DNA from: a virus
Taxonomy: Duplodnaviria; Heunggongvirae; Uroviricota; Caudoviricetes
Virus record (IMG/VR): IMGVR_UViG_2617271087_000009
Strand: one strand, 5' to 3'
DNA: 18,212 nt
The notes beneath the pieces are model-generated. The model was not told the DNA's origin. It ran no database searches and worked only from the letters and a program-made list of their open reading frames with translations. Shown one piece after another: positions 1 through 12,568 of the stretch. Each line of letters opens with the position of its first letter. Position 1 is the stretch's first letter. The position numbers and the translations under genes are program-made.

Positions 1-1014
1 TTACTCTACTGTGGACACTGTGTGGACACTCTCGGCTTCAGTACCACCTCTTAGCGGATTAAGAGAAATGGCGTCCTGAAGGTACTCTGGCGCAAAATGA
101 GCGTAAACCATAGTTTGCTCAATCCGCGTGTGACCTAGTATCCGTTGTAGCGTGATAATACTTCCTCCATTAATCATGAAATGAGTGGCAAAGCTGTGCC
201 TTAGTGCATGTGTGGCTTGCCCCGTTGGCAAATCCGGTTTTATTGCTTTCATTGTTCGTCTGAAGCGAGGGTAATCAGCATCAGGGAATAAAAAACCTCG
301 TTTGTTATCCGCGATCATTTTGGCAACAGCCTCTGAGATCGGGACGGTGCGTGGTTTGTTTGTTTTCGTTTTAACAAACGTGACGCGGTTATGGATGATA
401 TTTTCTGCTTTCAAACGAGCTGCTTCTCCCCAACGTGCTCCTGTACTCAGGCAAAGAATCGCAATCTTTTTGTTGTCGCCGTCAAGTGCTGCAAGCAGTA
501 AGGCAATTTCTTCCTGTGTGAGATAGCCTGTTTCTGGTTTTTCCTCCTTAAGCCTCTTTGTCCCTCTGATAGGGTGCTCACCAAAGAATAACTCCGCTTC
601 AATCAGGGCTGTAAACATGCCGCTAATACATGTTAAATCACGATTGATACTCGAAGGTTTAATACCCTGACTTCTTCGGGTGGCGCAGTACTGGCTGATA
701 AGGGATTTCGTGATTTGAAATGCGCATGGGTCATTCGTTATTTTTGTGAAGATTTCAATTTTTCCAAGATTAGATTTCCCATGCTCTTCGTGTTTACCCT
801 TTAAATCCCACCAGATCTGTGTCAGTTCCGACAGACGTCGTTTGTCTGTTGGTTTTGATAGCCATTCTTTATTGTGGTGGTTGTACAACGTGTATTTTTC
901 GAAAGCGACAGCTTCGCTTTTCTTATCAAACTTCCTACGGATGCGTTTTCCGTTACGTCCAGTAGGGCGGATGTCCACTTCATATCGACCATCATCGAGT
1001 TTTTTGATTGCCAT
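1..1014 (-). CDS. int: Tyrosine integrase, P2 Int-like (337 aa)
   Basis: Minus-strand ORF 1..1092; internal Met at 1012-1014 gives 337 aa, the P2 Int length, beginning MAIKKLDDGRYEV. C-terminal HxxR...Y recombinase-type residues (ATHALRHSFATH ... MVYAH). Lies next to the divergent repressor/cox pair. Confidence 0.9.
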   Translation of the reverse strand: MAIKKLDDGRYEVDIRPTGRNGKRIRRKFDKKSEAVAFEKYTLYNHHNKEWLSKPTDKRRLSELTQIWWDLKGKHEEHGKSNLGKIEIFTKITNDPCAFQITKSLISQYCATRRSQGIKPSSINRDLTCISGMFTALIEAELFFGEHPIRGTKRLKEEKPETGYLTQEEIALLLAALDGDNKKIAILCLSTGARWGEAARLKAENIIHNRVTFVKTKTNKPRTVPISEAVAKMIADNKRGFLFPDADYPRFRRTMKAIKPDLPTGQATHALRHSFATHFMINGGSIITLQRILGHTRIEQTMVYAHFAPEYLQDAISLNPLRGGTEAESVHTVSTVE

Positions 1015-1069
1015 CAGAAAACCCTCCGAGTGGTACTTTTTTTTTGCTACTACTAATCGCTTTTTTCGT

Positions 1070-1090
1070 GGTGGCTGAAATTTAGCCACC
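1070..1090. other. Perfect 7-bp stem / 7-nt loop hairpin (GGTGGCT-GAAATTT-AGCCACC) in the C-int intergenic region
   Basis: Inverted repeat read directly. No U-tract follows on either strand, so not a canonical intrinsic terminator; possibly a protein-binding or int-regulatory element. Confidence 0.3.
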
Positions 1091-1130
1091 AATAGTAGGC
1101 ACTTGTGATGAATATATTCACGATAAATTG

Positions 1131-3597: not shown

Positions 3598-4602
3598 TAG
3601 TTGATACCCGCTGCCGAGCTGAAAGCTCTATCAATATTATTTCTGTTTCTGGCGGAAAGGATAGCCTTGCTCAATGGCTTGTTGGTATTGAAAGCGGTGT
3701 GCATTTTTTTGCCGGTTTTTGCAGACACCGGGCATGAGCATCCGCAGACAATGGAGTATCTCGATTATCTGGAGAACCGACTCGGGCCGGTTAAACGGGT
3801 TAAAGCTGACTTCTCCCGACAGATTGAAGGTAAGCGCAAGTTTATTGCTGAGAAATGGCCTGTTTCTCTGGTTGAAGAGTGCGGAATGTCTCCGGGGGAA
3901 GCGGCAGAGCGCATCAATTGTGCGCTGGAAATTCTCAAGCCTACTGGTATCCCATTTCTTGATTTGTGCATGTGGAAAGGGCGATTTCCTTCCACTAAAG
4001 CCAGATTTTGCACTTTTGACCTTAAACATGAGCCAGTACGTACTCAGGTCGTGTTACCTGCGCTTAATGAGTTTGATGAGGTAATTAGCTGGCAGGGGAT
4101 TCGCGCTCAGGAGTCTCCTGCGCGCGCGGGTCTGCCTGCCTGGGAAGAGGATGCGGACAATACGCCCGGGCTCCATGTATACCGTCCTATTCTGAACTGG
4201 ACGCATGAGGAGGTATTTGCATTTGCAAGACGTCATGGAATTAAACCTAATCCGTTATACCAGCAGGGATGCAGTCGTGTCGGTTGTATGCCCTGCATCC
4301 ACGCCAGAAAGTCTGAATTAGCTGAAATTTTTAGTCGCTGGCCGGAAGAGGTTAAGCGTGTTGCGGAATGGGAGCGACTTGTCGCCGCATGCTCCAGACG
4401 CGGAAATTCTACTTTCTTCCCGTCAACTCATGACCCGCGTCGTGCGGAACGCCGCATTGATATTATTACTGTCGATGCTTACGGAATTGAGTCTTATCGT
4501 GACTGGGCGATGACCACGCGTGGCGGGGCACAGTTTGATTTGCTGGCTTCGGTGAATGATAAGTCAGTTTGCAGTAGTGTCTATGCCGGTGTATGTGAAT
4601 GA
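3594..4602 (+). pseudogene. PAPS reductase / DndC-like PP-loop protein with Cys cluster, interrupted by a +1 frameshift in a T7 run (3704-3710); possibly a sequencing error
   Basis: Frame 0 from ATG 3594 (overlapping the orf83 stop) encodes MIVDTRCRAESSINIISVSGGKDSLAQWLVGIESGVHFF and stops at 3735-3737. Frame +1 continues FLPVFADTGHEHPQTMEY... to 4602. SGGKDS followed about 25 residues later by DTG...P.T is the PAPS-reductase family signature, but here it is split across frames. Removing one T from the T7 run restores one ORF of about 335 aa. C-terminal GCSRVGCMPC cysteine cluster. Confidence 0.7.
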
Positions 4603-6884
4603 GTCATTCTTTCCAGGAGCAATACACCTGCGTACCTCCGTCAGCATTTGCTGCAGGCACCGGTAAGGCGTTTACCGGTGCTTATGCATGGAACGCGCCA
4701 CGCGAGGCCGTCGGGCGCGAAAGACCCCTTACACGTGACGAGATGCGTCAGGTGCAAGGTGTTTTATCCACGATTAACCGCCTGCCTTACTTTTTGCGCT
4801 CGCTGTTTACTTCACGCTATGACTACATCCGGCGCAATAAAAGCCCGGTGCACGGGTTTTATTTCCTCACATCTACTTTTCAGCGTCGTTTATGGCCGCG
4901 CATTGAGCGCGTGAATCAGCGCCATGAAATGAACACCGACGCGTCGTTGCTATTTCTGGCAGAGCGTGACCACTATGCGCGCCTGCCTGGAATGAATGAC
5001 AAGGAGCTGAAAAAGTTTGCCGCCCGTATCTCATCGCAGCTTTTCATGATGTATGAGGAACTCTGCGATGCATGGGTTGATGCACATGGCGAAAAAGAAT
5101 CGCTGTTTACGGATGAGGCGCAGACTCACCTGTATGGTCATGTTGCTGGCGCTGCACGTGCTTTCAATATTTCCCCGCTCTACTGGAAAAAATACCGTAA
5201 AGGACAGATAACCACGAGGCAGGCATATTCTGCCATTGCCCGTCTGTTTAACGATGAGTGGTGGACTCATCAGCTTAAAGGCCAGCGTATGCGCTGGCAT
5301 GAGGCGTTACTGATTGCTGTCGGGGAGGTCAATAAAGACCGTTCTCCTTATGCCAGTAAACATGCCATTCGTGATGTGCGTGCGCGCCGCCAGGCAAATC
5401 TGGAGTTTCTTAAATCGTGTGACCTTGAAAACAGGGAAACCGGCGAACGCATCGACCTTATCAGTAAGGTGATGGGCAGTATTTCTAATCCTGAAATTCG
5501 CCGGATGGAGCTGATGAACACCATTGCCGGTATTGAGCGTTACGCCGCCGCAGAGGGTGATGTGGGGATGTTTATCACGCTGACCGCGCCGTCAAAGTAT
5601 CACCCGACACGTCAGGTCGGAAAAGGCGAAAGTAAAACCGTTCAGCTTAATCACGGCTGGAACGATGAGGCATTTAATCCAAAGGATGCGCAGCGTTATC
5701 TCTGCCGTATCTGGAGCCTGATGCGCACGGCATTCAAGGATAATGATTTACAGGTCTACGGTTTGCGAGTCGTCGAGCCACACCACGACGGAACGCCGCA
5801 CTGGCATATGATGCTTTTTTGTAATCCACGCCAGCGTAACCAGATTATTGAAATCATGCGTCGCTACGCGCTCAAAGAGGATGGCGACGAAAGAGGAGCT
5901 GCGCGAAACCGTTTTCAGGCAAAACACCTTAACCGGGGCGGTGCTGCAGGGTATATCGCGAAATACATCTCAAAAAACATCGATGGCTATGCACTGGATG
6001 GTCAGCTCGATAACGATACCGGCAGGCCGCTGAAAGACACTGCCGCGGCTGTTACCGCATGGGCGTCAACGTGGCGCATTCCGCAATTTAAAACGGTTGG
6101 CCTGCCGACAATGGGGGCTTACCGTGAACTACGCAAATTGCCTCGCGGCGTCAGCATTGCTGATGAGTTTGACGAGCGCGTCGAGGCTGCACGCGCCGCT
6201 GCAGACAGTGGTGATTTTGCGTTGTATATCAGCGCGCAGGGCGGGGCAAATGTCCCGCGCGATTGTCAGACTGTCAGGGTCGCCCGTAGCCCGTCGGATG
6301 ACGTTAACGAGTACGAGGAAGAAGTCGAGAGAGTGGTCGGCATTTACGCGCCGCATCTCGGCGCGCGTCATATTCATATCACCAGAACGACGGACTGGCG
6401 CATTGTTCCGAAAGTGCCGGTCGTTGAGCCTTTGACTTTAAAAAGCGGCATCGCCGCGCCTCGGAGTCCTGTCAATAACTGTGGAAAGCTCACCGGTGGT
6501 GATACTTCGTTACCGGCTCCCACACCTTCTGAGCACGCCGCAGCAGTGCTTAATCTGGTAGATGACGGTGTTATCGAATGGAATGACCCGGAGGTCGTGA
6601 GGGCGCTCAGAGGTGCATTAAAACACGGCCTGAGAAGACCAAACCGTCAGCAAAGAAACGGAAGCCCGTTAAAACCGCATGAAATAGCGCCATCGGCCAG
6701 ACTGACCCGGTCTGAACGATTGCAAATCACCCGTATCCGCGTTGACCTTGCTCAGAACGGTATCAGGCCGCAGCGATGGGAGCTTGAGGCGCTGGCGCGT
6801 GGCGCGACCGTAAATTATGACGGGAAAAAATTCACGTATCCGGTCGCTGATGAGTGGTCGGGATTCTGGCATCAATTTGAGTAA
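4599..6884 (+). CDS. A: Replication initiation protein A (rolling-circle HUH endonuclease), 761 aa
   Basis: 761 aa equals P2 gpA length; HUH-like motif (GTPHWHMMLF) and tyrosine-containing active-site region (GYIAKYISKNIDGY); start overlaps the upstream stop (ATGA). Confidence 0.9.
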   Translation: MSHSFQEQYTCVPPSAFAAGTGKAFTGAYAWNAPREAVGRERPLTRDEMRQVQGVLSTINRLPYFLRSLFTSRYDYIRRNKSPVHGFYFLTSTFQRRLWPRIERVNQRHEMNTDASLLFLAERDHYARLPGMNDKELKKFAARISSQLFMMYEELCDAWVDAHGEKESLFTDEAQTHLYGHVAGAARAFNISPLYWKKYRKGQITTRQAYSAIARLFNDEWWTHQLKGQRMRWHEALLIAVGEVNKDRSPYASKHAIRDVRARRQANLEFLKSCDLENRETGERIDLISKVMGSISNPEIRRMELMNTIAGIERYAAAEGDVGMFITLTAPSKYHPTRQVGKGESKTVQLNHGWNDEAFNPKDAQRYLCRIWSLMRTAFKDNDLQVYGLRVVEPHHDGTPHWHMMLFCNPRQRNQIIEIMRRYALKEDGDERGAARNRFQAKHLNRGGAAGYIAKYISKNIDGYALDGQLDNDTGRPLKDTAAAVTAWASTWRIPQFKTVGLPTMGAYRELRKLPRGVSIADEFDERVEAARAAADSGDFALYISAQGGANVPRDCQTVRVARSPSDDVNEYEEEVERVVGIYAPHLGARHIHITRTTDWRIVPKVPVVEPLTLKSGIAAPRSPVNNCGKLTGGDTSLPAPTPSEHAAAVLNLVDDGVIEWNDPEVVRALRGALKHGLRRPNRQQRNGSPLKPHEIAPSARLTRSERLQITRIRVDLAQNGIRPQRWELEALARGATVNYDGKKFTYPVADEWSGFWHQFE
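6456..6475 (+). other. Candidate origin / A-protein nick region inside the A coding sequence
   Basis: GCGCCTCGGAGTCCTGTCAA matches my recollection of the P2 ori sequence, which is known to lie within the 3' part of gene A. Recall-based, not computed. Confidence 0.4.
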
Positions 6885-6973
6885 GGATCTCATCTATACA
6901 GTATAAGTAGTTTTGACTGTAATTGATTGTTTTTTATATGGTTGCATGCATTAAATCTACGTCAATATCATTA

Positions 6974-6982
6974 TGTTATAAT
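6974..6982 (+). promoter_or_regulatory. Extended -10 promoter element (TGtTATAAT) upstream of the cargo operon
   Basis: TG-n-TATAAT read directly at 6974-6982, about 29 nt upstream of the ATG at 7011 with GGAGA RBS at 7001-7005; AT-rich context; no good -35. Confidence 0.45.
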
Positions 6983-7010
6983 GCATTACTTAAAAATGTT
7001 GGAGATAAAA

Positions 7011-7202
7011 ATGTTAAAGCCTGCAGATGTTGTTTGTTTGAAAAGCGGTGGATTTAAAATGACTGTATCTGACTCTACTGAAACTCATGCTAAATGTATT
7101 TGGCATGATAAAGAAGGAGTTTTGCACGAGGAGTCATTCTCCATTGATTTACTGGAAATAGCAGAGAGTAAAAGTGGTATGCTTTGTCGTCCACGTAAGT
7201 GA
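7011..7202 (+). CDS. Small protein (63 aa), YodC/DUF2158-like, first gene of the cargo island
   Basis: ATG at 7011 with GGAGA RBS. The pattern V.LKSGG.KMTV ... C.W.D ... F recalls the DUF2158 (YodC) small-protein family, from memory only. AT-rich codon usage unlike the flanking phage genes. Confidence 0.6.
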   Translation: MLKPADVVCLKSGGFKMTVSDSTETHAKCIWHDKEGVLHEESFSIDLLEIAESKSGMLCRPRK

Positions 7203-7229
7203 ATCATAATAAAATTCACGGGGGAAAGT

Positions 7230-7910
7230 ATGAAACAATACAGCGAATTAGAAAACAATGTTAAGAGATTCATTGTTGAGCATGAAAAAGGGATTTCTAT
7301 TGATGATATTCATCATAAGTTCCGGATGAAGGATGGTCAGAATCGCAAGATGGCAGATTATCTTATTGATAATAAAAAGATAATTTTGGAGATGAAAAGT
7401 CTTTTTTCTGACAGGGTCAAGAATGTCAATGATAAACTGAATGAGTTGGTTAAAACTGATAATTGGCTTGCAAAAAACTGGCATGGTGCTATTCATTTAG
7501 AAGAGTTGATAAAAAGACACCCAGACTCAAAGCGATTTAGAAATGATATAATGAACTTTGCTTATGAAAATATTAAAACAAAGATAGTTAAGGAAGCTAA
7601 TAAGCAAATAAATGCAACAAAGGATGTTTTGGATTTAAATGACTCGATTGGCGGGTTGATTTTGTTAAATGATAATGTCTTTTCACATGAGTCTAATTAT
7701 TTGTCAGATGAAATATTATATTTGCTAGGCACAAAGAGATATTCGAGTGTTGAGTTTGTGGTTTATATTGCAAAATTGATTGATAAACAGGTTGATGTTT
7801 GTGTGCTACTTGACAGTCAATCTAAAAATAAAAATTATATTGAATGGTATATGAATAATGTTTTTTTATTGAACTGGGCGTCTTTTAATAAATATGCAAT
7901 AAAGATGTAG
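7230..7910 (+). CDS. Hypothetical protein (226 aa), cargo gene of unknown function
   Basis: ATG at 7230 with GGGGGAAAG RBS, 27 nt after the upstream stop, so probably co-transcribed. K/N/E-rich, AT-rich; no motif I recognise, no predicted transmembrane segment. Confidence 0.7.
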   Translation: MKQYSELENNVKRFIVEHEKGISIDDIHHKFRMKDGQNRKMADYLIDNKKIILEMKSLFSDRVKNVNDKLNELVKTDNWLAKNWHGAIHLEELIKRHPDSKRFRNDIMNFAYENIKTKIVKEANKQINATKDVLDLNDSIGGLILLNDNVFSHESNYLSDEILYLLGTKRYSSVEFVVYIAKLIDKQVDVCVLLDSQSKNKNYIEWYMNNVFLLNWASFNKYAIKM

Positions 7911-8163
7911 TGGTGTGGATGGATATGAAATGAGTCAACCAAGATGCACCTTGGTCAGTAATCTCATGTGAGATACCACATATAACACCAAAAGTGTCAG
8001 GTTGATGGCCATTGTTCACCGTTTACAGCAGATTATGGTCAACGAAAATCTGACGCCTGACGAGCTGGTCGGGTGTGCCGAAATAGTCTGGGATAATTAC
8101 GGGCGGTTTAACTATATCGGTCAGTCCAGAGTTGCGCCACCACCACGCAGACGATAGAGAACG

Positions 8164-8197
8164 CCGCCAGTCGTGAAACTTGTTTTCAGGCTGGCGG
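8164..8197 (-). terminator. Possible weak intrinsic terminator for the 313-aa cargo gene
   Basis: CCGCCAG ... CTGGCGG 7-bp GC-rich stem with a long structured loop, about 33 nt downstream of the minus-strand stop, followed on the minus strand by CGUUCUCUAUCG (only moderately U-rich). Confidence 0.3.
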
Positions 8198-8229
8198 AGT
8201 TGAACAACGAGCGAAGTGAGGCGTTAGCA

Positions 8230-9171
8230 TTAAGTTAATTTTAATGAATGGTACTCTATCGAGCTGATTGTAGATGCGATATATTTACGATCATTTACAG
8301 AGAGTATTGCCGCTAGTAGACGACATACCAGAGCCTGCATTTGTAGCAATATATCGCTACCATATTGACAATCATTGATACTAGAGAAACCAAGCGGTTG
8401 CCCATTAAAAATGGCTTCATGAAAATTATCATTGCGTATAACTGAAACATTACATTCATCTGTTGCCCATGACGGGATTTTTACACCGTAATTTTCGCAC
8501 ATCCAATATACTCTATTTTGATGAGATGGTTTTTTCTCTTTAATGACTTTATCCCTTTCATCCCATGCTATAGCAAAACAGCAATCAAGAGCCATATAAA
8601 GATACTGGAATTTCTCAAAGGAAAGGTATAGTGGGTTATGTGACAGGAATAGGGAGTGTATCACCGCAGCTATTCTTTTAATGGAGCGATCATCTTTTTG
8701 TTTGTCTTTTATATAGTTAAGTGCTAGCTCTATTACTTCTTTTTCAGAGCATCCAACGAGAATAAAGTCGGTTAACTTAGTGGGCTTGATAGTGGTTGCA
8801 TCAAGAAAACCAGCGTCAGTGGTTGTCAATCTTATACCCTTGAAAAAAGAGAGGCACCACACAACAAAGTTGAGAGTTTCTAACGAGGATGTGTTTTTTA
8901 ATTTTAGTGTGTGCGTTTTGGGCATGCCGAATACTCGGTAACTATAAGGCATTGTGCATGTGTCACCATTAAGGTTATATACCTTTCGATTCCCAGGGTA
9001 TATCCAACCATTAACAACGTTTTTATCATTGTTAATACGTTCCACGTTCTCAATAAGACCGGGTAAAGTACGCAAAGAAAATTGTTCAGTCTCAATGTTA
9101 ACTTCTACTGGATAGTATCCAAACTCCGAAATAATCTCATTTGGTTGCTGTTCGTCAACTTCACCTTGCAT
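8230..9171 (-). CDS. Hypothetical protein (313 aa), cargo gene of unknown function
   Basis: ATG (reverse complement of 9169-9171) preceded by GGAGAAAG RBS; convergent with the 7011-7910 operon; AT-rich. It contains an R-x4-H motif (RNDNFH, residues about 246-251) reminiscent of HEPN Rx4-6H, which is weak evidence. Confidence 0.7.
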   Translation of the reverse strand: MQGEVDEQQPNEIISEFGYYPVEVNIETEQFSLRTLPGLIENVERINNDKNVVNGWIYPGNRKVYNLNGDTCTMPYSYRVFGMPKTHTLKLKNTSSLETLNFVVWCLSFFKGIRLTTTDAGFLDATTIKPTKLTDFILVGCSEKEVIELALNYIKDKQKDDRSIKRIAAVIHSLFLSHNPLYLSFEKFQYLYMALDCCFAIAWDERDKVIKEKKPSHQNRVYWMCENYGVKIPSWATDECNVSVIRNDNFHEAIFNGQPLGFSSINDCQYGSDILLQMQALVCRLLAAILSVNDRKYIASTISSIEYHSLKLT

Positions 9172-9409
9172 AACTTTCTCCGTTCAAAAACAGGCACGAT
9201 AATTCTCGTAAGCCTATCATGTTCGCAAAGTATCCATACCTGTGGATTTTGTAAATTTAAGTTGATTTGTCATTAAATAAGCCGTTGCATGCAACAAGTG
9301 AATGTTTTTGCATGCGTCGGGGATGTCCGTTCAGGCTGCGTGCGGTCAGGACTGGTGCGGATCCATAGTATCTATGCAACTGCATTAAAACCGCCCCATG
9401 AAGCGGGCG

Positions 9410-9428
9410 GGCGAGGCGGGGAAAGCAC
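9410..9428. other. cos: cos site (19-nt cohesive-end sequence GGCGAGGCGGGGAAAGCAC)
   Basis: Exact match to my recollection of the P2/P4 19-nt cohesive end, in the expected position downstream of Q and adjacent to the tin/old-equivalent locus. Confidence 0.55.
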
Positions 9429-9562
9429 TGCGCGCTGGCGGTGGTGCTGATTTTATTTTTTCAGCGTCTCAGCGCGTCGTGATGGCATTTAGTCGGCCTG
9501 CTGGGGCGTTGGTGTGTCTGCGGGGTGTTTTGTGCGGTGGTGAGGGCGTGATGACGGGATGT

Positions 9563-9584
9563 AAAAAAGCCGCCCGCAGGCGGC
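9563..9584 (-). terminator. Rho-independent terminator after Q
   Basis: Minus strand reads GCCGCC-UGCG-GGCGGC followed by UUUUUU, starting 5 nt after the Q stop codon. Confidence 0.65.
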
Positions 9585-9589
9585 GATGT

Positions 9590-10624
9590 TCAGCCGTTGT
9601 CAGTGTCAAGTGAGTAGTTTTTAAAGCGGATGACCTCCTGACCGAGCCAGTCGTTTATCTCGCGGATCCTGTCCTGTAACGGGATAAGCTCATTGCGGAC
9701 AAAGACCTTTGCCACTTTCTCAATATCACCCAGCGACCCGACGTTCTCCGGCTTGCCACCCATCAACTGAAAGGGGATGCGGTGCGCGTCCAGCAGGTCA
9801 GCGGCGCTGGCTTTTTTGATATTAAAAAAATCGTCCTTCGTCGCCACTTCACTGAGGGGGATAATTTTAATGCCGTCGGCTTTCCCCTGTGGGGCATAGA
9901 GAAACAGATTTTTAAAGTTATTGCGGCCTTTCGACTTCACCATGTTTTCGCGAAGCATTTCGATATCGTTGCGATCCTGCACGGCATCGGTGACGTACAT
10001 GATGTATCCAGCATGTGCGCCATTTTCGTAATACTTGCGGCGGAACAGCGTGGCCGACTCATTCAGCCAGGCAGAGTTAAGGGCGCTGAGATATTCCGGC
10101 AGGCCGTACAGCTCCTGATTAATATCCGGCTCCAGCAGGTGAAACACGGAGCCGGACGCGAAGGCTGTCGGCTCGTTGAAGGACGGCACCCACCAGTAAA
10201 CATCCTCCTCCACGCCACGGCGGGTATATTTTGCCGGTGAGGTTTCCAGCCTGATAACCTTACCGGTGGTGCTGTAACGCTTTTCCAGAAACGCATTACC
10301 GAACACCAGAAAATCCAGCACAAAGCGGCTGAAATCCTGCTGGGAAAGCCACGGGTGCGGAATAAACGTTGAAGCCAGAATATTACGTTTGACGTAAATC
10401 GGTGAGCTGTGATGTACGGCAGCACGCAGGCTTTTTGCCAGACCGGTAAAGCTGACCGGTGGCTCATACCATCTGCCGTTACTGATGCACTCGACGTAAT
10501 CCAGAATGTCACGGCGGTCGAGTACCGGCACCGGCTCACCAAAGGTGAATGCCTCCATTTTCGGGGCGCTGGCGGTCATTGTTTTCACCGCAGGTTGCGG
10601 TGTTTTCCCTTTTTTCTTGCTCAT
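9590..10624 (-). CDS. Q: Portal protein Q (344 aa)
   Basis: 344 aa equals P2 gpQ length; start ATG overlaps the P stop (ATGA); adjacent to terminase. Confidence 0.9.
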   Translation of the reverse strand: MSKKKGKTPQPAVKTMTASAPKMEAFTFGEPVPVLDRRDILDYVECISNGRWYEPPVSFTGLAKSLRAAVHHSSPIYVKRNILASTFIPHPWLSQQDFSRFVLDFLVFGNAFLEKRYSTTGKVIRLETSPAKYTRRGVEEDVYWWVPSFNEPTAFASGSVFHLLEPDINQELYGLPEYLSALNSAWLNESATLFRRKYYENGAHAGYIMYVTDAVQDRNDIEMLRENMVKSKGRNNFKNLFLYAPQGKADGIKIIPLSEVATKDDFFNIKKASAADLLDAHRIPFQLMGGKPENVGSLGDIEKVAKVFVRNELIPLQDRIREINDWLGQEVIRFKNYSLDTDNG

Positions 10625-12395
10625 CAGTAAAACTCCAGAATGGTGGATGTCAGCGGGGTGCTGATACCGGCGGTGAGTGGCTCATTTAACAGGGCGTGCA
10701 TGGTCGCCCAGGCGAGGTCGGCGTGGCTGGCTTCCTCGCTGCGACTGGCCTCATAGGTGGCGCTGCGTCCGCTGCTGGTCATGGTCTTGCGGATAGCCAT
10801 AAACGAGCTGGTGATGTCGGTGGCGCTGACGTCATATTCCAGACAGCCACGGCGGATAACGTCTTTTGCCTTGAGCACCATTGCGGTTTTCATTTCCGGT
10901 GTGTAGCGGATATCGCGCGCGGCGGGATAGAACGAGCGCACGAGCTGGAACACGCCGACACCGAGGCCGGTGGCATCAATACCGATGTATTCGACGTTAT
11001 ATTTTTCGGTGAGTTTGCGGATGGATTCAGCCTGGGTGGCAAAGTCCATGCCTTTCCACTGGTGACGCTCAAGTATCCTGAATTTGCCACCGGCCACCAC
11101 CGGCGGTGCCAGCACCACGCATCCGGCGCTGTCGCCACGGTGTGACGGGTCGTAACCAATCCATACCGGGCGGGAGCCGAACGGATTGGCGGCAAACGGT
11201 GCATAGTCTTCCCATTCTTCCAGCGTGTCGACCATGCAGCGTTGCAGCTCCTCGAACGGGAACACCGATGCCTTGTCGTCAACAAATTCACACATGAACA
11301 GGTTTTTAAAATCGTCGGCGCTGTTTTCGCGTTTGAGCTGCTCAATGTCGAACAGTGTGCAGCCACCTTTCAGGGCGTCCTCAATGGTGACAATCTGCCG
11401 CCACTGGCCGTCCGCACAGAGAAGCCCACCGGCAAGGGCGTTATGACTGACGTCGATTTCCACACGTTCGGCGGCGCTGGCGCGTCCCCGGTTGAACAGT
11501 TCACCCGACCAGAACGGGTAGCGTCGTGCGCCAGTGTGGACGGGGTGGAGAAATAGGTCGAGCGCAGGTGACTCTGTGAGGCCATACCTGATGCCACCTT
11601 ACGCAGAACCTGAAAATTTGGGATCCAGAAAATCTCGTCGACGTACAGGTCACCGTTATGGCTCTGTGCGGTGTTGGAGTTGGTGCCGAGAAAAATCAGT
11701 TTTGCGCCGTTATTGCCCAGGACAATCGGGTCACCGGTCAGGTCAACGTCAACCAGACGGGCAAAGGCGATGATGTATTCACGGAACACATACGCCTGCG
11801 TTTTACTGGCCGACAGAAAAATCTGGTTATGACCGGTTTTCAGGGCGCGCAGCAGCGCCTCGCGGGAAAAATAAAATGTCGCGCCAATCTGGCGGGATTT
11901 CAGGATATCGCGGATGCGGTGCTCAAGCCCGGCGCGATACCAGTGCAACTGATAGTCGAAAGACTGCTCAAAGAAAATCTGCTCCAGCTTTTCGATAGCC
12001 TCGTCACTGAAAAAATTCTTTTTCGGTTTGCGCCGCCCGCCTTTGTTGCGGTTAGCGACGTTCGGATTAAGGTCTGCCTCGTTGCCGGTCTGGCTGTAGC
12101 GGTTTACCCGTGCCAGTCGTTCAATCTGGCGTCCGAGCAGGTCAATTTCCTTGAAGTCACCGCCGGTTTTCTGCGGTTTGATAATGAGCTGGGTCAGCCG
12201 CGCTTCCAGACTCATTTCGACACGGCTGATGGGGGCAACGCTGTCCCAGCCGTCGCGCTGTTTCCAGCTCTGCACCGTCGGGCGTTTCATCTGCAACATG
12301 GCGGCAATCTGCGGCACGGAAAACCCCTGCCAGTACAGCAGCGCCGCCTGACGACGCGGGTCGTGTAAAAGAGTGGTGTCTGTGGTGATGGTCAT
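10624..12395 (-). pseudogene. P: Terminase large (ATPase) subunit P, split by an apparent 1-nt deletion near 11515-11530; possibly a sequencing error
   Basis: N-terminal part from ATG 12393-12395 (MTITTDTTLLHDPRR...) runs in one frame to a stop at 11370. The C-terminal part (…YPFWSGELFNRGRASAAERVEIDVSHNALAGG…) is in another frame that is open from 11598 to the stop at 10624-10626. The coding span is 1769 nt, one short of the 1770 needed for the 590-aa P2 gpP. Sensible protein sequence switches frames at about AHDA|YPFW. Confidence 0.8.
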
Positions 12396-12568
12396 GAATA
12401 CCTCGCCGTGATGAATACACGGCAAGGCTACTGAGTCGCGCCCCGCGATTCGCTAAGGTGCTGTTGTGTCAGTGATAAGCCATCCGGGACTGATGGCGGA
12501 GGATGCGCATCGTCGGGAAACTGATGCCGACATGTGACTCCTCTAATCACTATTCAGGACTCCTGACA
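12396..12568. promoter_or_regulatory. Divergent late-promoter region (P_P leftward, P_O rightward), expected Ogr-dependent
   Basis: Intergenic region between divergent P and O, as in P2. A TGT-N12-CAC element (12533-12550) partly resembles the TGT-N12-ACA late-promoter upstream motif. Not resolved further. Confidence 0.35.

Follow-up and report, generated by a model that had tools for sequence, protein, structure and literature searches.

ORF313 of a P2-like prophage encodes a predicted HEPN domain joined to a conserved N-terminal domain in the slot of P2 old

The stretch of DNA analysed here (18,212 nucleotides, IMG/VR record IMGVR_UViG_2617271087_000009; referred to as the window) is a P2-like (Peduovirus) prophage. 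Its cargo gene ORF313 belongs to a new, large and unnamed HEPN family in which the HEPN domain, identified by prediction, is joined to a novel N-terminal domain, and it lies in the classical phage-exclusion slot. [quoted passage not shown] An initial annotation, made from the letters of the DNA alone, had offered a HEPN-type effector as a weak lead; it missed both the conserved 140-residue N-terminal domain and the location of the gene in the P2 old/tin hotspot beside cos.

The ORF313 gene and its slot beside cos

The cargo region was defined as the interval from replication gene A to the portal gene Q, which contains a DUF2158 ORF, ORF226, a 258-bp segment and ORF313 (Table 1). The P2-type cos sequence, at which the phage genome ends on the right, places ORF313 in the slot of P2 old, 240 bp inside cos and with the position and orientation of that gene. 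In the reference P2 genome the order from A to cosR is orf91, tin and old, with old and tin transcribed leftward.

Table 1. Features of the window discussed in the text, with positions counted from its first letter
Feature	Position	Strand	Remarks
Integrase	1-1092	-	
Replication gene A, last gene of the early operon	4599-6884	+	
DUF2158 ORF	6927-7202	+	DUF2158 domain, E 1.2e-7; position of P2 orf91
ORF226, hypothetical	7230-7910	+	30% GC; PHROG 20483 (function unknown)
258-bp segment	7970-8227	+	Between ORF226 and ORF313; common to many P2-like phages
ORF313 coding sequence, 313 aa and stop	8230-9171	-	ATG start; PHROG 5937
Predicted HEPN domain, residues ~141-300	8272-8751	-	Core helices 161-176, 184-207, 242-252 and 274-289; insert 208-241
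Predicted catalytic Rx4H motif, R246-N-D-N-F-H251 codons, then E252	8419-8436	-	From conservation
E186 codon, start of core helix 2	8614-8616	-	Predicted auxiliary active-site residue; 96/96
N-terminal alpha/beta domain, residues ~1-140	8752-9171	-	No assigned fold
Ribosome-binding site GGAGAAAG	9174-9181	-	GGAG 6 nt 5' of ATG
Promoter-like site (sigma-70-like), ATGACA / 16 nt spacer / CAAAAT	9246-9273	-	Consensus match 9/12
P2-type cos cohesive-end sequence GGCGAGGCGGGGAAAGCAC	9410-9428	+	Right end of phage genome
Portal gene Q	9590-10624	-	Beyond it terminase gene P, then O, N and M

The gene had initially been described as a genuine ORF with an ATG and a ribosome-binding site, AT-rich and convergent with its neighbours, and all of this was borne out. 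ORF313 faces the plus-strand genes on the early-operon side (A, the DUF2158 ORF and ORF226), and its GC content of 37.2% is below that of the window overall (50.8%) and of the A and Q genes on either side (53%). The accompanying statement that no family could be recognised held for Pfam, NCBIfam and PADLOC, but not beyond them, as the protein matches PHROG 5937 (function unknown) with an E value of 5e-199 and has hundreds of unnamed homologues. The corresponding RefSeq entry, WP_032179103.1 from E. coli 4/0, is encoded by 100% identical DNA and is annotated as 'hypothetical protein'. The pair of ORF226 and ORF313, which is also carried by phage vB_EcoM-720R8, goes back to a 2006 deposition under the name 'P2-EC67 ORF226 and ORF313', in which each of the two is labelled hypothetical.

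The coding strand before the start codon reads GAACGGAGAAAGTT-ATG, and the ribosome-binding site reported initially is therefore present. Further upstream lies the promoter-like site listed in Table 1. The mRNA starts of P2 old-tin have been mapped ~45 nt upstream of old, and in a global alignment they fall at positions 9240/9242 of the window, just past the -10 element; the promoter regions of P2 and the window are only 56% identical, and BLAST detects only the cos match between them. Judged by position, ORF313 would be expressed from the prophage as old is, leftward and from a promoter just inside cos.

Several observations concern the surroundings of the gene. The DUF2158 ORF has a shorter RefSeq version of 63 aa, and several of the hotspot arrangements that Rousset et al. 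list in Table S5 have this ORF at their A-proximal edge. The 258-bp segment shows 90-93% identity in a large number of P2-like phages, P2 and Wphi among them, and it accompanies ORF313 in Yersinia phage YpM46 and in E. coli MS15052. With positions 6900-9600 as query, 2,166 of 5,426 E. coli genomes gave a match, which in almost every case came from a short conserved stretch like this segment. A small plus-strand ORF within it (8002-8157, 51 aa) bears the RefSeq name 'meiotically up-regulated 80 protein', which is clearly spurious. GC-rich hairpins, each followed by a T run, stand on either side of the cos sequence at 9391-9410 and 9569-9586 (minus strand); one overlaps cos at its left edge, and the other lies just past the Q stop codon.

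The gene for gpP, the large terminase subunit (10624-12425, minus strand), is divided between two frames with a break near 11520 because of a 1-nt deletion that turns GACGCCTACC into GACGCTACC. With the intact 720R8 protein as reference, residues 1-292 and 293-590 match different frames. Either the prophage is unable to package DNA or the split arose as an error of sequencing; an intact gpP is annotated in E. coli 4/0, whose DNA is identical to the window over 6900-9600.

Motif conservation, predicted fold and the N-terminal domain

The sequence RNDNFH, to which attention had been drawn near residue 250, corresponds to residues 246-251, and the caution attached to it, that a six-residue motif can arise by chance, was well placed. 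Shuffled versions of the ORF313 protein contained Rx4H in 21% of cases, Rx4-6H in 50% and RNx3H in 1.5%. The Rx4H motif alone therefore proves nothing. Conservation was examined in an alignment of 96 homologues with 23-78% identity to ORF313, in which R246 and H251 are kept throughout. The positions invariant in the alignment are G112, E186, R246, H251, G261 and R284, and the two motif residues are therefore two of just six. The residue after the arginine is N247 in 91 homologues and histidine in two, and a polar residue (N, D or H) right after the conserved arginine is typical of catalytic HEPN domains (PMC3710099). E252 is found in 90 of the 96, with aspartate in five more, and at least 90 homologues keep N247, E252, H217, R220, W56, T86, H87 and Y297, among others. 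Unlike the occurrence of the motif, its conservation in the aligned sequences is significant and exceeds chance. A second motif, R166-x5-H172, was attributed to chance, with R166 present in only 35 of the 96 homologues.

A conserved acidic residue in helix 2 is frequent in HEPN families (PMC3710099), and E186 is the putative counterpart in ORF313. Four positions past it, the 96-member alignment has Y or F, where the HEPN pattern Ex3[KR] would have K or R.

The fold was predicted with AF2 on the deeper alignment; an earlier model from 25 sequences had pLDDT values below 50 exactly at residues 244-271. Structure comparison identified the four-helix up-and-down bundle of two alpha-hairpins expected of a HEPN domain, and the lower-ranked fold matches included HI0074, a second Csm6, ST0689, TT1696, TTHA0636 and AbiV. 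In the model, E186 opens helix 184-207, and an insert (residues 208-241, with a helix at 217-228) separates core helices 2 and 3. According to the model secondary structure only, the motif closes helix 242-252, which ends just past H251, and a loop leads on to helix 274-289, bearing the invariant R284. The Rx4-6H motif of HEPN proteins is thus found as R246-x4-H251 and, by the model secondary structure, at the C-terminal end of core helix 3 behind a helix 2-3 insert. This is the location described for HEPN domains, in which an insert between helices 2 and 3 is frequent (Anantharaman et al. 2013, PMC3710099), and the predicted layout of helices, insert and motif is the canonical HEPN layout of that study.

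The suggestion of a HEPN-type protein is supported by these results, as R-N-x3-H, with its R and H invariant across the family, stands at the end of helix 242-252, the HEPN motif site (PMC3710099). The structure prediction and fold search proposed as a check in the initial annotation were run, and the fold they returned was not one unrelated to HEPN. Residues ~141-300 were concluded to form a catalytically competent HEPN domain as predicted by the model, and we regard it as very probable that ORF313 has a HEPN domain with a functional active site. Pfam, NCBIfam and PADLOC returned nothing significant for ORF313, its two halves, or the 25 and 96 homologues, the family profile had no sequence match among PDB chains, and Foldseek against the PDB gave no match below E 0.5. 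Sequence-profile matches in the PDB to ribonucleotide reductase R2 covered a short loop only (E ~0.02) and were treated as chance.

In front of the predicted HEPN domain, residues ~10-140 are modeled as seven strands and two helices. W56, R79, T86, H87, G112, R114 and D135 are each present in at least 87 of the 96 homologues, and the motifs RVFGLPKTH and GMRLTxTEAGFLDATPIK lie in this part of the protein. Mean column conservation is 0.47 in the N-terminal domain versus 0.45 in the HEPN domain, and a domain that senses phage proteins, which evolve fast, would not usually be conserved to an equal degree. Since the N-terminal domain is strongly conserved, a conserved ligand, RNA substrate or host factor fits better than a variable phage protein. 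Residues ~15-70 (window ~8960-9130) show a weak, non-significant resemblance to bacterial RyR-domain proteins (PDB 6ug5, 3nrt and 4n05), with a Y-x-P...helix...W-x-Y-G pattern and E values of 0.12-0.45 for single domains and 0.0027 for a two-copy chimera. The Pfam RyR model had no match among the 96 family members, and this possible resemblance, which is not significant, was kept as a lead only.

Family distribution, genomic neighbours and alternative readings

A profile search of 1.84 billion representatives returned 639 proteins with E<=1e-3, of which 189 reached E<=1e-30, giving a family of at least 639 representatives at 50% identity. Among the best 150 of the 639, most are ~300 aa long and match over their full length. 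Members of odd length were considered as domain swaps and rejected, their arginine-rich out-of-frame tails being frameshift artefacts. A word-indexed search yielded 260 clusters, all 'hypothetical' except for one automatic UniProt name. UniProt A0A3A8EY04 from Acinetobacter tianfuensis (P0098), 45% identical to ORF313, is named 'Apea-like HEPN domain-containing protein', a name that was not reproduced. Pfam HEPN_Apea has no match to this protein with E values of up to 10 allowed, and the name therefore points correctly to HEPN but to the wrong family.

Relatives found with the 25-sequence alignment are encoded at 77 loci in different species of alpha-, beta- and gammaproteobacteria and a few other phyla. 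ORF313-like DNA is present in 93 of 5,426 complete E. coli genomes (~1.7%), and the family also occurs in P. aeruginosa, Acinetobacter, Salmonella and Klebsiella.

Experiments have validated the gpA-gpQ region as a hotspot of anti-phage systems, and Table S5 of the study describing it catalogues the ORF226/ORF313 arrangement and other ORF313 alleles as 'hypothetical' (PMC9122126). Accessions of the ORF313 family are absent from the table of tested systems in that study (Rousset et al.), and the family was not found in the supplements of Vassallo et al. (PMC9519451). Homologues in P. aeruginosa adjoin Gabija in an island with ParB and DUF932; others in this species lie in an integrase island with an upstream small HTH gene, in which a resolvase and proteins of the HNH and TIR-NACHT types are also encoded. 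The 147 immediate neighbours at 37 diverse loci include type IIG restriction-modification enzymes, DRT1a, HmaB, two DUF4238 proteins, the PADLOC candidates PDC-S49, PDC-S26 and PDC-M06B, resolvases and Phd antitoxins, as well as phage terminase and portal genes; elsewhere ICE genes are immediate neighbours too. The link of the family with defence genes is a qualitative one.

Two of these loci deserve a separate remark. In P. aeruginosa locus L099, a 73-aa HTH_3 (Xre-type) gene (7729-7950) lies 50 bp upstream of the homologue in the same orientation, and in that lineage it could act as a regulator of the locus or as a partner resembling an antitoxin. Synteny in Sphingopyxis that had seemed vertical was set aside, as it represents a shared ICE (DUF3363, SLT, S26 peptidase, DUF736 and imuB/dnaE2); in this element (locus L055), a 375-aa gene at 10958-12085, located 64 bp past the ORF313 homologue, is a borderline HEPN_AbiU2 match (E 9e-5).

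ORF313 might also be an active HEPN RNase that has no part in phage exclusion and serves as an element addiction or stabilisation toxin, or as an RNA-processing or regulatory enzyme. Such a role would accord with the strong conservation of the whole protein, N-terminal domain included, with the broad spread of the family over three classes of proteobacteria and with the presence of some copies among ordinary chromosomal genes, for example beside an AlkZ-like gene in Aeromonas. The Phd/YefM antitoxin and small HTH genes among the neighbours point in the same direction. However, no antitoxin-like neighbour is conserved, several copies lie within defence islands, the synteny in Sphingopyxis is that of an ICE in which the next gene is the borderline HEPN_AbiU2, and ORF313 itself occupies the old position in a validated defence hotspot. 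A function outside exclusion is accordingly considered unlikely, though it retains appreciable weight.

The presence of the convergent ORF226 raises the alternative of a two-gene system, such as a toxin with its immunity protein or a sensor with its effector. ORF226 is found in 27 of the 5,426 complete E. coli genomes, which is rarer than ORF313-like DNA and the same number as for the whole segment. In these genomes it always stands beside an ORF313-family allele, in one of the 27 a different one of 85% identity; both genes are AT-rich cargo (30% and 37% GC), and P2-EC67 has the same pair. Against such a system, ORF226 is missing from 66 of the 93 E. coli genomes with an ORF313 homologue, from Yersinia phages that carry one, including YpM46, and from Salmonella P2-like prophages, where the homologue is the sole cargo gene between Q and DinI/gpA. 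Other E. coli alleles of ORF313 adjoin DinI-like and hypothetical genes, or ImmA/IrrE and a hypothetical gene. An all-against-all comparison of neighbours within 6 kb at 73 of the 77 loci (67 with a full-length homologue) revealed no recurrent partner, the repeats being just two shared mobile elements, and an ORF226-like neighbour recurs at none of these loci. The two genes are, in addition, convergent, and the 258-bp segment between them is present in many P2-like phages that lack both.

The Salmonella, Yersinia and E. coli loci and the 73-locus comparison rule out ORF226 as an obligatory partner, and ORF313 is an autonomous module; a two-gene system therefore appears very doubtful. ORF226 probably belongs to the hotspot cargo in its own right, as a second gene. 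It had no match in Pfam, PADLOC, NCBIfam or the PDB, and it contains D-x6-E-x-K (DNKKIILEMK), a candidate feature that could hint at a PD-(D/E)xK nuclease.

The last alternative, a non-catalytic HEPN-like bundle with a binding or scaffold role as in nucleotidyltransferase-fused HEPN, would leave the Rx4H motif with no enzymatic meaning, and it is given the least weight of all, as highly improbable.

Proposed mechanism and comparison with known HEPN systems

With moderate confidence in the complete defence model, we favor ORF313 as a single-protein HEPN RNase of the abortive-infection type that is gated via its N-terminal domain. We infer that the protein has RNase activity, is toxic and takes part in phage defence or abortive infection, and we derive its RNA target and trigger in the same way, along the following lines. 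The protein would be made in the lysogen and held inactive. Infection by another phage would then trigger it via the N-terminal domain or an interdomain pocket, by analogy with ApeA and HepS. The HEPN domain would form a dimer, as suggested by the superfamily, with a composite active site in which two R246-N-x3-H251 motifs are assisted by E186. Metal-independent RNA cleavage at this site may leave 2',3'-cyclic phosphate ends, the most likely target being tRNA anticodon loops, or else other translation RNAs. Translation would be halted and the infection aborted.

More tentatively, ORF313 may found a widespread single-protein anti-phage system in Proteobacteria and beyond. Its N-terminal domain would in that case be a new sensor or regulatory module that gates the HEPN RNase and answers a conserved small molecule, nucleic acid or host factor. 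We regard this broader proposal as possible rather than probable.

Among abortive-infection effectors, solo HEPN nucleases like HepS and ApeA are coming to be seen as one of the main classes, for which silencing and triggering are the key question. At 313 aa, ORF313 is a compact representative, in a model temperate phage and at the classical old/tin slot, and its family was missed by the Pfam, NCBIfam and PADLOC models searched. The N-terminal domain would be a new one, and escape-mutant genetics in E. coli could reveal its ligand or trigger. Of P2 elements, 19% have no recognisable defence genes (bioRxiv 10.64898/2026.02.27.708500), and inclusion of the ORF313 family would fill a gap in the annotation of P2 hotspots. 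A HEPN abortive-infection effector in a prophage hotspot would be unsurprising to specialists; the family is nevertheless widespread, unannotated, small and testable in E. coli.

Among known systems, HepS, the 'HEPN solo' of Salmonella Gifsy-1, is likewise a HEPN protein and is an abortive-infection anticodon nuclease (PMC13043305). HepS-type proteins are standalone HEPN domains of less than 250 aa with the motif R100-H105 (PMC13043305), whereas ORF313 adds the conserved 140-residue N-terminal domain. HepS forms a tetramer that is opened by its trigger, the siphovirus J tail-tip protein (PMC13043305). This trigger is not to be assumed for ORF313. With members of consistently ~300 aa, the ORF313 family falls outside the HepS type.

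ApeA is reportedly the system of Gao et al. 2020. [quoted passage not shown] However, ApeA is a mostly alpha-helical protein of ~580 aa with N-terminal, Mid and split-HEPN parts, assembled into decamers or dodecamers (bioRxiv 10.64898/2026.01.26.701840), whereas ORF313 has 313 aa and a beta-rich N-terminal domain. Pfam HEPN_Apea had no match to ORF313, its halves or A0A3A8EY04, with a best value of E 0.15 among the 96 members, and the PADLOC ApeA model had no match among 25 members at E up to 1. Both the family models and the ~580-aa, three-domain helical architecture thus place ORF313 outside ApeA.

The HepT toxins (HepT/MNT, DUF86, type II/VII; PDB 7ae2, 5yep and 8xdj) are ~130-140 aa long and always accompanied by the gene for an MNT nucleotidyltransferase antitoxin. 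No MNT antitoxin gene flanks ORF313 in the window, and no partner family is recurrent across the compared loci, so that ORF313 falls outside HepT/MNT as well.

Finally, P2 Old (586 aa, an ABC-ATPase with a TOPRIM nuclease) and Tin have no homology to ORF313 and share its position alone. Like them, ORF313 occupies the slot from gpA to cos/gpQ in leftward orientation, with a putative promoter just inside cosR, and all three are non-essential cargo of lysogenic conversion.
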